The notes below the pieces were generated by a model. The model was given only the letters and a program-made list of their open reading frames with translations, did no database searches and was not told the origin of the DNA. 32,000 nt of DNA from Breznakia sp. PF5-3 (lineage in GTDB: Bacteria > Bacillota_I > Bacilli_A > Erysipelotrichales > Erysipelotrichaceae): positions 5,836 through 37,835 of the forward strand of contig NZ_JAQFIQ010000023.1 in the NCBI RefSeq assembly GCF_029504745.1. Reading direction: 5' to 3'. Each line of letters opens with the position of its first letter. Positions within the stretch are counted from its first letter, which is position 1. Shown here piece after piece: positions 11,402 through 12,886 of this stretch. A program made the position numbers and the translations under genes.

Positions 11402-12886
11402 ATGGTTTATCTTGAATATCATGATAATAATTTACACAATTTTTGGCAAATTGAAATAGATGATAATTATATTACATTTACCTTTGGAAGTATTGGAACA
11501 GCAGGGCAAAGCGAAACAATAGAATTTGAAACTGCAGAGCTGGCGCAAAAGGAAGTATCTAAGCTAATTGCTCAAAAACGCAAAGAAGGTTATAAAGATA
11601 TTAATAATGTATCAAAAAAGAATCAAGAAGATATTGAAAAGAGAATTAACCAACTTAATGAATTTATTTGTAAACTTAATAAGTTCAAAAATGATTCATC
11701 TTCGGCAGCAGATAATTATTATAGTATTGCAATGAAGGAAAGCATGGAAGATATTGATAATGAAGTTGATATTTATAATTTAGGGATAAAGTATACTTCG
11801 TTACGTCCTTTGATTTATGATGTTTTTAATGAACTTATGAAGATGTTTGAGCAAGGTGATATTCTTTGGTTTGATGAAGAAACACAAGCTGGTCTTATAC
11901 TAGCAAAAGAATTTGCATTATCAAAGCAAGAAGATATATCATTGATGATTCGTTTTATCAATTGTTGTGATATTAATCATGAAGTTTATATTATGGATGC
12001 TGTTATTGCAATATGGAATCGCTGGGGGTTTCGTAAGGAAACCTCTGATTTAGTTGTTGCATATATGTTGCAGAGTCAACATGGTATAGAATTACCAATT
12101 GCTCTTGATGAAGAAGAGATGAAGATAAAAGAAATTGTAAAAGATCCAAAATCAGCAAATATCATTTTATCAAGTATAAAAAAGTGGATTGATAGTGATG
12201 CTTTAAGGGCGGTTTATGAACATCGAAGTGAACATTCACTTGAAATGTTTATGGTTGAGATGTTACCAGAGACCATTGGGTCACTTTTCTCTATGGATAG
12301 TGTTGAGGCAGAAGAAAGTGCTCAAAAATTTTATACATTGTATAAAAAAGGGAAGACACCTAAGATAATACAAATAACAAATTTAAAAAAAGAGCCTCTT
12401 ATAAATGGAAGTGATGAAATATTTTTATCGACGATAATGGAAGCAATTGAAGATTTATCAGAAAAAACATATAAATGTTTAAAAAAACATGATGATTTAA
12501 ATATGAAACCTTTTGATGAATCAGTAATTAAACGAAAAGGATTAGCACATACTTGTATAATTAATATAAAAGGAGAAAAATATAATAAACTTGAATATTT
12601 TTCTATTGGAAATAAAATAAATTCTGCAACATTTGAAAAAGATCGATATGCGGAGAAAACATTTAATAATATTAACTTTTCTGAAGTTTCAGATTCTTAT
12701 ATAATAAATACTTTATTTCCTACAGTAGCAAAATGGTTGGAAGATAAGATAGATGAACAGGCTTTTGATAATTTATATAGTAATTTCCTAGAATTGCATA
12801 TAGCTGTTTGGGATTCAAAAAAGGCAAGAGCAAAAATTACGATTGATCGTCGAAATAAAACTCGTCATATAAAATTGAATAATTAA
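11402..12886 (+). CDS. WGR-domain protein with large uncharacterised C-terminal region
   Basis: Residues 1-66 fit the WGR pattern (NFWQIEI..ITFTFGSIGTAGQ..F.T...A......KLIAQKRKEGY), with the eponymous WGR replaced by FGS. AGGAG RBS 8 nt upstream. I could not assign the rest. Confidence 0.8.
   Translation: MVYLEYHDNNLHNFWQIEIDDNYITFTFGSIGTAGQSETIEFETAELAQKEVSKLIAQKRKEGYKDINNVSKKNQEDIEKRINQLNEFICKLNKFKNDSSSAADNYYSIAMKESMEDIDNEVDIYNLGIKYTSLRPLIYDVFNELMKMFEQGDILWFDEETQAGLILAKEFALSKQEDISLMIRFINCCDINHEVYIMDAVIAIWNRWGFRKETSDLVVAYMLQSQHGIELPIALDEEEMKIKEIVKDPKSANIILSSIKKWIDSDALRAVYEHRSEHSLEMFMVEMLPETIGSLFSMDSVEAEESAQKFYTLYKKGKTPKIIQITNLKKEPLINGSDEIFLSTIMEAIEDLSEKTYKCLKKHDDLNMKPFDESVIKRKGLAHTCIINIKGEKYNKLEYFSIGNKINSATFEKDRYAEKTFNNINFSEVSDSYIINTLFPTVAKWLEDKIDEQAFDNLYSNFLELHIAVWDSKKARAKITIDRRNKTRHIKLNN

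Follow-up and report, generated by a model that had tools for sequence, protein, structure and literature searches.

A WGR-headed protein of Breznakia with a helical module related to the C-terminal third of DUF6138

The DNA analysed here is a stretch of 32,000 nucleotides from Breznakia sp. PF5-3 (Erysipelotrichaceae; assembly GCF_029504745.1, contig NZ_JAQFIQ010000023.1, positions 5,836 to 37,835 of the forward strand; below, the window, with positions counted from its first letter). The gene under study lies at 11402-12886 and encodes a protein of 494 amino acids (aa), denoted P0001, in which a WGR domain is followed by an all-helical acidic module and an alpha/beta domain. Comparison of sequence profiles places the helical module with the C-terminal third of DUF6138, a connection that an earlier note, made from the sequence alone, did not draw. 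The gene and its parts are the following.

11402..12886, forward strand: gene for P0001, 494 aa, ATG start, stop codon included (open reading frame list and translation)
11402..11608, forward strand: WGR domain, residues 1-69, a charge-depleted F-G-S variant with net charge -6 (Pfam, fold match)
11609..12391, forward strand: all-helical acidic module, residues 70-330, relative of the C-terminal third of DUF6138 (HMMER, alignment, hhalign, AlphaFold2)
12404..12865, forward strand: alpha/beta domain, residues 335-488, with the order helix, three strands, helix, three strands (AlphaFold2, alignment)

At 28 % G+C a stop codon is expected about once in 10 codons, so that a frame of 494 codons would stay open by chance with a probability of ~2e-22, and each of the other five frames is interrupted by 19-80 stops; the frame at 11402-12886 is a real coding sequence. 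With 37 family sequences as input, AlphaFold2 gave a model whose mean predicted local distance difference test (pLDDT) score is 85 and which resolves a WGR sheet-plus-helix (residues 1-66), a long helix (72-94), an all-helical part (101-325) and an alpha/beta part (338-493). The net charge is -6 for the head, -15 for the module and 0 for the tail. Where the earlier note saw a probable coiled segment after the head, the helical character stands, but the segment is one confidently predicted helix, 72-94, the first of the module, and the stand-alone relatives of the module begin with the equivalent helix. Similarly, the long acidic helical region described there is found in residues 100-330 (also given as net -15, all-alpha in the model) but does not extend to the last ~160 residues, which are alpha/beta with no net charge.

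Pfam does not assign the body of the protein: residues 100-494 gave no match even at E <= 10, so that PF19635 (DUF6138) itself is not reached, and the remark that the region holds no nameable motif is accurate as far as this database goes. Profile methods, by contrast, place residues ~70-330 with a module related to DUF6138. The profile of the module family matches a WGR-DUF6138 protein encoded in the same genome (hmmsearch, E 1.1e-7). The Pfam DUF6138 model matches the module family member P0039 (E 1.4e-10); separately, weak matches of this model were obtained in 4 of 37 module family members (best E 2.8e-4). Furthermore, hhalign comparison of the module family alignment (A2) with a nine-sequence WGR-DUF6138 alignment (A5) gave a probability of 98.7 % (E 3e-16) over 145 columns, which map onto residues 651-795 of the protein P0041 and fall on the conserved C-terminal third of DUF6138. 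Because of the match within the genome, the Pfam match of P0039 and the hhalign result, the body of P0001 is a reduced, diverged DUF6138 core: its module shares homology with the conserved C-terminal core of DUF6138 (model positions ~310-520), and the first ~300 positions of DUF6138 are not aligned, with only a single helix lying between the WGR domain and the module.

The core motifs of the module are W-x-x-x-E-x-QAG, D-[ILV]-[ND]-H-E-V, K-W-G and G-Q-H-G, and across the family they occur in the order W-x-N-D-E-x-QAG, A..LAL, D-L-D-H-E-V, K-W-G, E-T and G-Q-H-G-x-E; G164, A172, D190, H193 and W208 are nearly invariant. Most of the module is modelled with pLDDT >90. A HEAT-like body, offered in the earlier note as one of two candidates, fits loosely, in that the structures matched by the modelled part 70-330 include designed repeats, TOG and HEAT proteins (Z 7-10), but these scores lie within the helical background of the tool, which reaches Z ~13. 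Searches of Protein Data Bank (PDB) sequences with P0001 and with the A2 and A5 profiles returned only WGR entries and designed helical proteins.

The other candidate, a diverged DUF4132 body, was not recovered. DUF4132 (PF13569) has no match on P0001 or in the genome at E <= 1, in a search that was positive in 5 control genomes, and none on the DUF6138 relatives; when compared in hhalign with an 11-sequence E. coli-centred YehI alignment, A2 and A5 gave a probability of 0.1 % (E ~0.5), the YehI profile being shallow (Neff 2.4). Residues 265-307 of YehI recur as the top alignment, a look-alike that is not significant. On this profile evidence, residues 70-330 of P0001 are homologous to the C-terminal third of DUF6138, and no homology to DUF4132/YehI was detected.

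The family to which P0001 belongs is very rare and its distribution is patchy. When residues 100-494 were searched exhaustively with HMMER in 1.84 billion representative proteins, only 36 matches were retrieved at E <= 1e-3, two of which (611 and 594 aa) span the whole query; a separate word-seeded search added a third, near-identical full-length relative, P0002 (614 aa, 41 % identity), and the full-length relatives considered below are P0002, P0005 and P0006. Most of the other matches consist of the module alone, with a length of ~250 aa and an alignment to residues ~105-325; these stand-alone proteins are very acidic, with isoelectric points (pI) of about 4.1-4.4 in the six for which they were computed. 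A few matches are fusions, which combine WGR, the module, ankyrin repeats and a beta-propeller in one case, and the module with WD40 or with TPR in one case each. In genome samples, the module was found in 3 of 201 genomes of the same family, this genome included, in none of 398 other genomes of the class, and as one weak match (E 3.3e-5, internal TGA) among 398 others of the phylum. DUF6138 is confined to this genome among 101 genomes of the family, and gave one weak match, below the Pfam cut-off, in 400 other genomes of the phylum. The complete architecture of P0001 was not found in any other genome among those searched; an alignment of the four full-length proteins (P0001 and its three relatives), scanned in GTDB genomes and JGI metagenomes, gave matches to the WGR domain only, and plasmid and phage records contained no match to residues 100-494.

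One weak profile match elsewhere proved to be a DUF6138 protein of another genome of the family (G120), a genome that the 100-genome family sample may not include. This protein (L047:6344-7843) has 499 aa, lacks a WGR domain and matches the Pfam model with E 7.5e-56. A phage-type integrase gene is found close to its gene, separated from it by a TetR-like gene, an arrangement suggesting that the DUF6138 gene is carried on a mobile element.

The size, acidity (pI 4.1-4.4) and patchy distribution of the stand-alone members, together with the presence of several diverged paralogues per genome, would also fit immunity-type binders, an acidic helical stock directed against secreted toxins, of which P0001 would be a fused version. 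We consider this improbable: the inspected copies (on contig C6 of this genome and in the same-genus genome G128) have neither a toxin gene nor a known immunity family next to them, none of 37 members matched a Pfam Imm family, and a WGR head is unexpected on an immunity protein.

The alpha/beta domain is common only to P0001 and its three full-length relatives, and residues 335-488 have no convincing relative beyond these proteins. Folded alone, the domain reaches a pLDDT of 66; VIA-align of this model places the GHKL (Bergerat-fold) ATPases GyrB, TopoVI-B, MutL and Hsp90 at the top with Z of only 4-6.6, Foldseek lists hexokinase-like folds first, none of them significant, and the alignment of the four proteins shows, by eye, neither a conserved Asn nor DxGxG. 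With weak scores and two fold searches that disagree, neither a GHKL nor a hexokinase-like fold is assigned to the domain. The ESM Atlas offered no usable match for residues 330-494 of P0001 or for residues 230-586 of P0004, the product of the next gene downstream.

The N-terminal WGR domain, placed at residues 1-66 in the earlier note, is confirmed by PF05406 at residues 2-69 (E 5.8e-15; 55.6 bits against a cut-off of 22) and was also recovered in a six-frame search of the genome. The model of the head superposes on 2ra8_A with Z 12.5 and a root-mean-square deviation (rmsd) of 1.4 over 69 residues at 30 % identity (Foldseek, E 4.5e-4), and on the WGR domains of PARP1 and PARP3 with Z 8.0-8.6 and rmsd 1.7-1.8 over 67-69 residues (PARP3 2eoc, Z 8.6; PARP1 7s68, Z 8.5). 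The WGR fold senses DNA breaks in PARPs. The eponymous W-G-R is, as had been read, F-G-S in P0001 (F28-G29-S30), and this is one of several substitutions that remove positive charge. We compared the head with ten bacterial WGR heads, namely those of the three full-length relatives, of two giant proteins encoded on contig C2 of the same genome and of five others. Four basic positions are replaced in P0001: K13N (K in 10 of 10 relatives), K30S at the 'R' of W-G-R (K or R in 10 of 10), K40I (K in 9 of 10) and K62E (K in 8 of 10), which leaves the head at a net charge of -6, where nine of the compared heads lie between +1 and +3. In PARP2, K130 of the N-K-Y-Y motif and R153 of W-G-R touch DNA, and R153A abolishes stable binding (PMC6294510). 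By motif alignment only, positions 13 and 30 of P0001 would be the equivalents of K130 and R153; the aromatic-Gly-basic motif and the conserved basic residues of the PARP2 DNA contact are not found in the P0001 head.

Two further observations concern WGR domains in general. The alignments of NCBIfam LIC_11051 and of PHROG 6688, a 681-position phage family with no assigned function, to P0001 pass the WGR domain and reach about residue 150-165, so that the WGR domain plus the following helices may be a conserved unit that occurs in phages too. In addition, WGR matches were noticed near the C-terminus of open frames of ~2,350 codons in L027, L028, L030, L033, L035-L041, L043 and L045, the reverse of the usual N-terminal placing; these contigs are from Myxococcota, except for one Burkholderiales metagenome-assembled genome (L039).

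Around the gene, the window contains the following additional features.

10326..11267, forward strand: upstream neighbour, gene for a RhuM + Fic/Doc fusion, PADLOC candidate PDC-S23 (hidden Markov model, E 1.8e-114)
11332..11360, forward strand: promoter-like site, TTTATA, a 17-nucleotide (nt) spacer and TATAAT preceded by TG (extended -10), by consensus match only
12901..12993, forward strand: degenerate left-end remnant of an IS3-family insertion sequence (IS), with an orfA stub whose ATG is at 12949 (copies on contigs C78 and C74)
13119..14879, forward strand: gene for P0004, a WGR-less paralogue of 586 aa (BLASTP, search of the same genome, tree)

A GGAG ribosome-binding site lies 8-10 nt 5' of the P0001 start codon, downstream of the promoter-like site, whose class is not more numerous in this region than expected from shuffled sequence. 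An Rfam search of 9900-15200 gave nothing credible, and there is no LexA-type box near the gene (3 LexA/Cheo matches in the window against 3.6 expected). In a sequence database, P0001 is clustered with 36-52-aa 'putative transposase' fragments with which it shares no sequence, a clustering that we take to be a database artefact.

The 3' end of the gene coincides with an apparent loss. Residues 1-487 of the 614 residues of P0002 align to the P0001 gene in a tblastn comparison, and residues 488-614 are found nowhere in the window; homology to the full-length relatives ends at 12865, ~125 residues before their ends, and the stop codon follows at 12884-12886. The IS3 remnant starts 14 nt past this stop and 35 nt past the end of the homology. 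It measures ~95 bp, contains an orfA stub of 12 codons (MKLAIEDKTKLY*) and is 82-83 % identical to the left end of the element on C78 and C74, two contigs of this genome at whose ends more intact copies lie; orfA of the C78 copy is 47-53 % identical to annotated IS3 family transposases. Thus this copy of the protein has probably lost its last ~125 residues, judging from the alignment with its relatives, and we infer that the gene was cut short at its 3' end by an IS-associated event. Given the four replaced basic positions in the head and the missing C-terminal residues, binding of nucleic acid by P0001 is probably weak or absent.

Carried further, the same evidence would make P0001 a dying gene whose function is gone: the C-terminal residues are lost beside an IS remnant, the loss of the four conserved lysines is a derived change, and there is no orthologue in three congeners. 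That the gene is merely decaying nevertheless seems unlikely to us, because 494 codons remain free of stops where one would be due every 10 codons or so, P0001 retains, in the module as well as in the alpha/beta domain, the residues that do not vary among the four full-length proteins, and the AlphaFold2 model is confident.

The genome (2.36 Mb, 96 contigs) contains five related genes, those for P0001, P0004, a third small-module copy on contig C6 and the two giants on contig C2. Residues 4-161 of P0004 match residues 72-231 of P0001 with 30 % identity (BLASTP, E 6e-12). The C6 copy (L005:1339-2166) is stand-alone, acidic and 275 aa long, and its gene lies between radC and a gene whose product begins MCGRF (SRAP/YedK-like by eye), both of which we take to be linked to DNA damage; this context is not kept in G128. 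The C2 giants are a tandem WGR+DUF6138 pair of 1137 and 960 aa (L006:3833-10145), with transketolase genes on one side and a DeoR regulator on the other. In a maximum-likelihood tree of the module, the three small-module copies of this genome fall in three different clades: P0001 groups with P0007, P0008 and P0009, P0004 with P0013 (support 100/99) and the C6 copy with P0035 (100/100). P0001 and P0004 are therefore old paralogues that are adjacent by chance, not the products of a recent duplication.

The relation of P0001 to P0004 matters for a second alternative, in which the two proteins form a hetero-oligomer of a WGR-bearing and a WGR-less subunit, parallel to yehH/yehI of E. coli. The genes are adjacent on the same strand and have the module in common, the E. 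coli K-12 locus has the same order of a headed followed by a headless protein, and the two WGR-DUF6138 giants are likewise tandem. We nonetheless hold such a complex to be rather doubtful, as the IS3 remnant and a hairpin with a T run behind it lie in the 232-nt gap between the genes, the proteins belong to different old subfamilies with closer relatives of each elsewhere, and most members of the module family are stand-alone.

A wider unit comprising RhuM-Doc, P0001 and P0004 can also be envisaged, an anti-phage or conflict module in which the Doc-type toxin domain would be controlled by P0001 as a sensor of nucleic acid. The block 10326-14879 has a G+C content of 0.27-0.29 against 0.31-0.35 in its flanks and contains the IS remnant. 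It follows the conserved lysS, after which these genes are lacking in three congeners; the P0001 locus is not syntenic there, and P0001 sits in a species-specific stretch after lysS. The match of the upstream protein to PDC-S23 points in the same direction. Against this, the RhuM-Doc homologue of the congener G171 (74 % DNA identity) occurs by itself, flanked by genes for a P-type ATPase and a SIS-domain protein, in a genome in which no module protein was found, which argues against an obligate three-gene unit. Furthermore, PADLOC-DB 2.0 gives P0001 only a 14.7-bit DrmMII fragment match and P0004 none, P0001 has a promoter-like site of its own, and its WGR head has lost the conserved basic residues. 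We regard a common conflict module as very unlikely. The suggestion of the earlier note that the WGR domain could be the sensing head of a two-protein system is not supported, since the neighbour P0004 is a paralogue of another subfamily, RhuM-Doc occurs alone in a congener and the basic residues of the head are gone. No small antitoxin-like open reading frame was seen 5' of the RhuM-Doc gene. Separately, a 40-nt palindrome after lysS (10087-10126) matches itself on the opposite strand, and similar sequences follow lysS in G059 and G171.

The reading that we favour, tentatively and as possible rather than established, is that P0001 represents a cytoplasmic, probably non-enzymatic, three-part type of predicted adaptor, of which this copy is derived and partly degenerate. 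An enzyme signature was sought past the WGR region in Pfam, NCBIfam, PADLOC and PDB sequences, with no match. In the ancestral form, the WGR head would dock on nucleic acid, as in PARP1-3, and the helical body, through a conserved polar patch (E..QAG, D-x-x-H-E-V, K-W-G, G-Q-H-G), would serve as the contact surface for a protein or a small ligand. In the P0001 copy the docking would be weakened or lost and the tail missing, and the protein might act via its helical body alone, like the stand-alone members of ~250 aa, or be heading for loss.

Several points weigh against this interpretation. The equivalence of K13 and K30 with the DNA-contacting residues of PARP2 comes from a motif alignment (K-F-W with K-Y-Y, F-G-K-I-G with W-G-R-V-G), not from structural superposition. 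The truncation is deduced from three relatives, two of which are close to each other, and the IS3 remnant begins after the stop codon, so that its causal link to the truncation is inferred only. Neither the module nor the alpha/beta domain has lost its invariant residues; with these, an intact frame, a promoter-like site of its own and a good ribosome-binding site, P0001 is possibly functional, and it may be fully so in a changed role. We found no paper that mentions DUF6138.

The favoured adaptor reading aside, what is new at this locus is the delimitation of a DUF6138-core module, with a WGR head and an orphan alpha/beta domain; the WGR+DUF6138 architecture as such is already registered in Pfam. 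The value of the locus lies in domain dissection and not in a new system. DUF6138 is reduced here to a core of ~250 residues that also occurs free-standing, which makes it a convenient small construct for studies of binding and structure, although P0001 itself, with its head lysines lost and its tail missing, is probably not the best representative of the family. A bolder proposal, which we rate as a long shot, is that the ~250-residue acidic helical module is the portable working core of DUF6138 and marks an as yet undescribed class of WGR-coupled adaptors, in which paralogues with and without a head, of the P0001/P0004 type, form a nucleic-acid-triggered complex, a minimal Gram-positive counterpart of YehH/YehI.

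To our knowledge, no bacterial WGR protein has an experimentally tested role. The WGR domains of PARP1/2/3 have the same fold as the head of P0001, which differs from these proteins by the lack of an ADP-ribosyltransferase domain, by the replacements W to F and R to S and by the loss of the lysine equivalent to K130. Closer in fold is Q64V53 of Bacteroides fragilis, the source of 2ra8, the closest solved WGR domain, which like LIC_11051 of Leptospira combines WGR with leucine-rich repeats. The NCBIfam model of the LIC_11051 family (Leptospira WGR-LRR 'fibronectin-binding' proteins) aligns to residues 3-151 of P0001, for which reason the WGR domain plus the following helices look like a shared unit; the body of these proteins, however, consists of leucine-rich repeats and is not DUF6138-like, and P0001 scores 55 bits against a family cut-off of 1000.

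MolR/YehH-YehI of E. coli (yehF-yehQ locus) share with P0001 the placement of a WGR head on a large helical body, and in K-12 the WGR-bearing yehH (WGR + DUF4132) is followed by the WGR-less yehI (DUF4132 only). MolR is reported to be in the LexA regulon, and a WGR protein of Deinococcus to be under DdrO control and de-repressed with the DdrO regulon (PMC8533742); one group assigns the role of DNA binding in MolR-like transcription factors to the WGR domain (PMC7824862). The Breznakia locus differs in that no MoxR, VWA or SWIM genes and no LexA-type box lie near P0001. The general expectation of the earlier note, that bacterial WGR domains usually head large proteins, holds, with helical bodies, both for E. 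coli yehF/yehH/yehI and for the two WGR+DUF6138 proteins of this genome.

It is these latter proteins that resemble P0001 most. The C2 giants have an N-terminal WGR head that is 47 % identical to that of P0001 over 64 residues, and WGR+DUF6138 proteins have a helical body with the same E..G / D-x-x-H / (W/Y)-G / G-Q core and are equally rare and patchy. P0001 differs from them in possessing only the equivalent of positions ~380-520, without the first ~300 positions and the long N- and C-terminal extensions, in the addition of the alpha/beta domain and in its acidic WGR head. The closest known kind is the Pfam-registered, uncharacterised WGR+DUF6138 architecture (PF05406 + PF19635).

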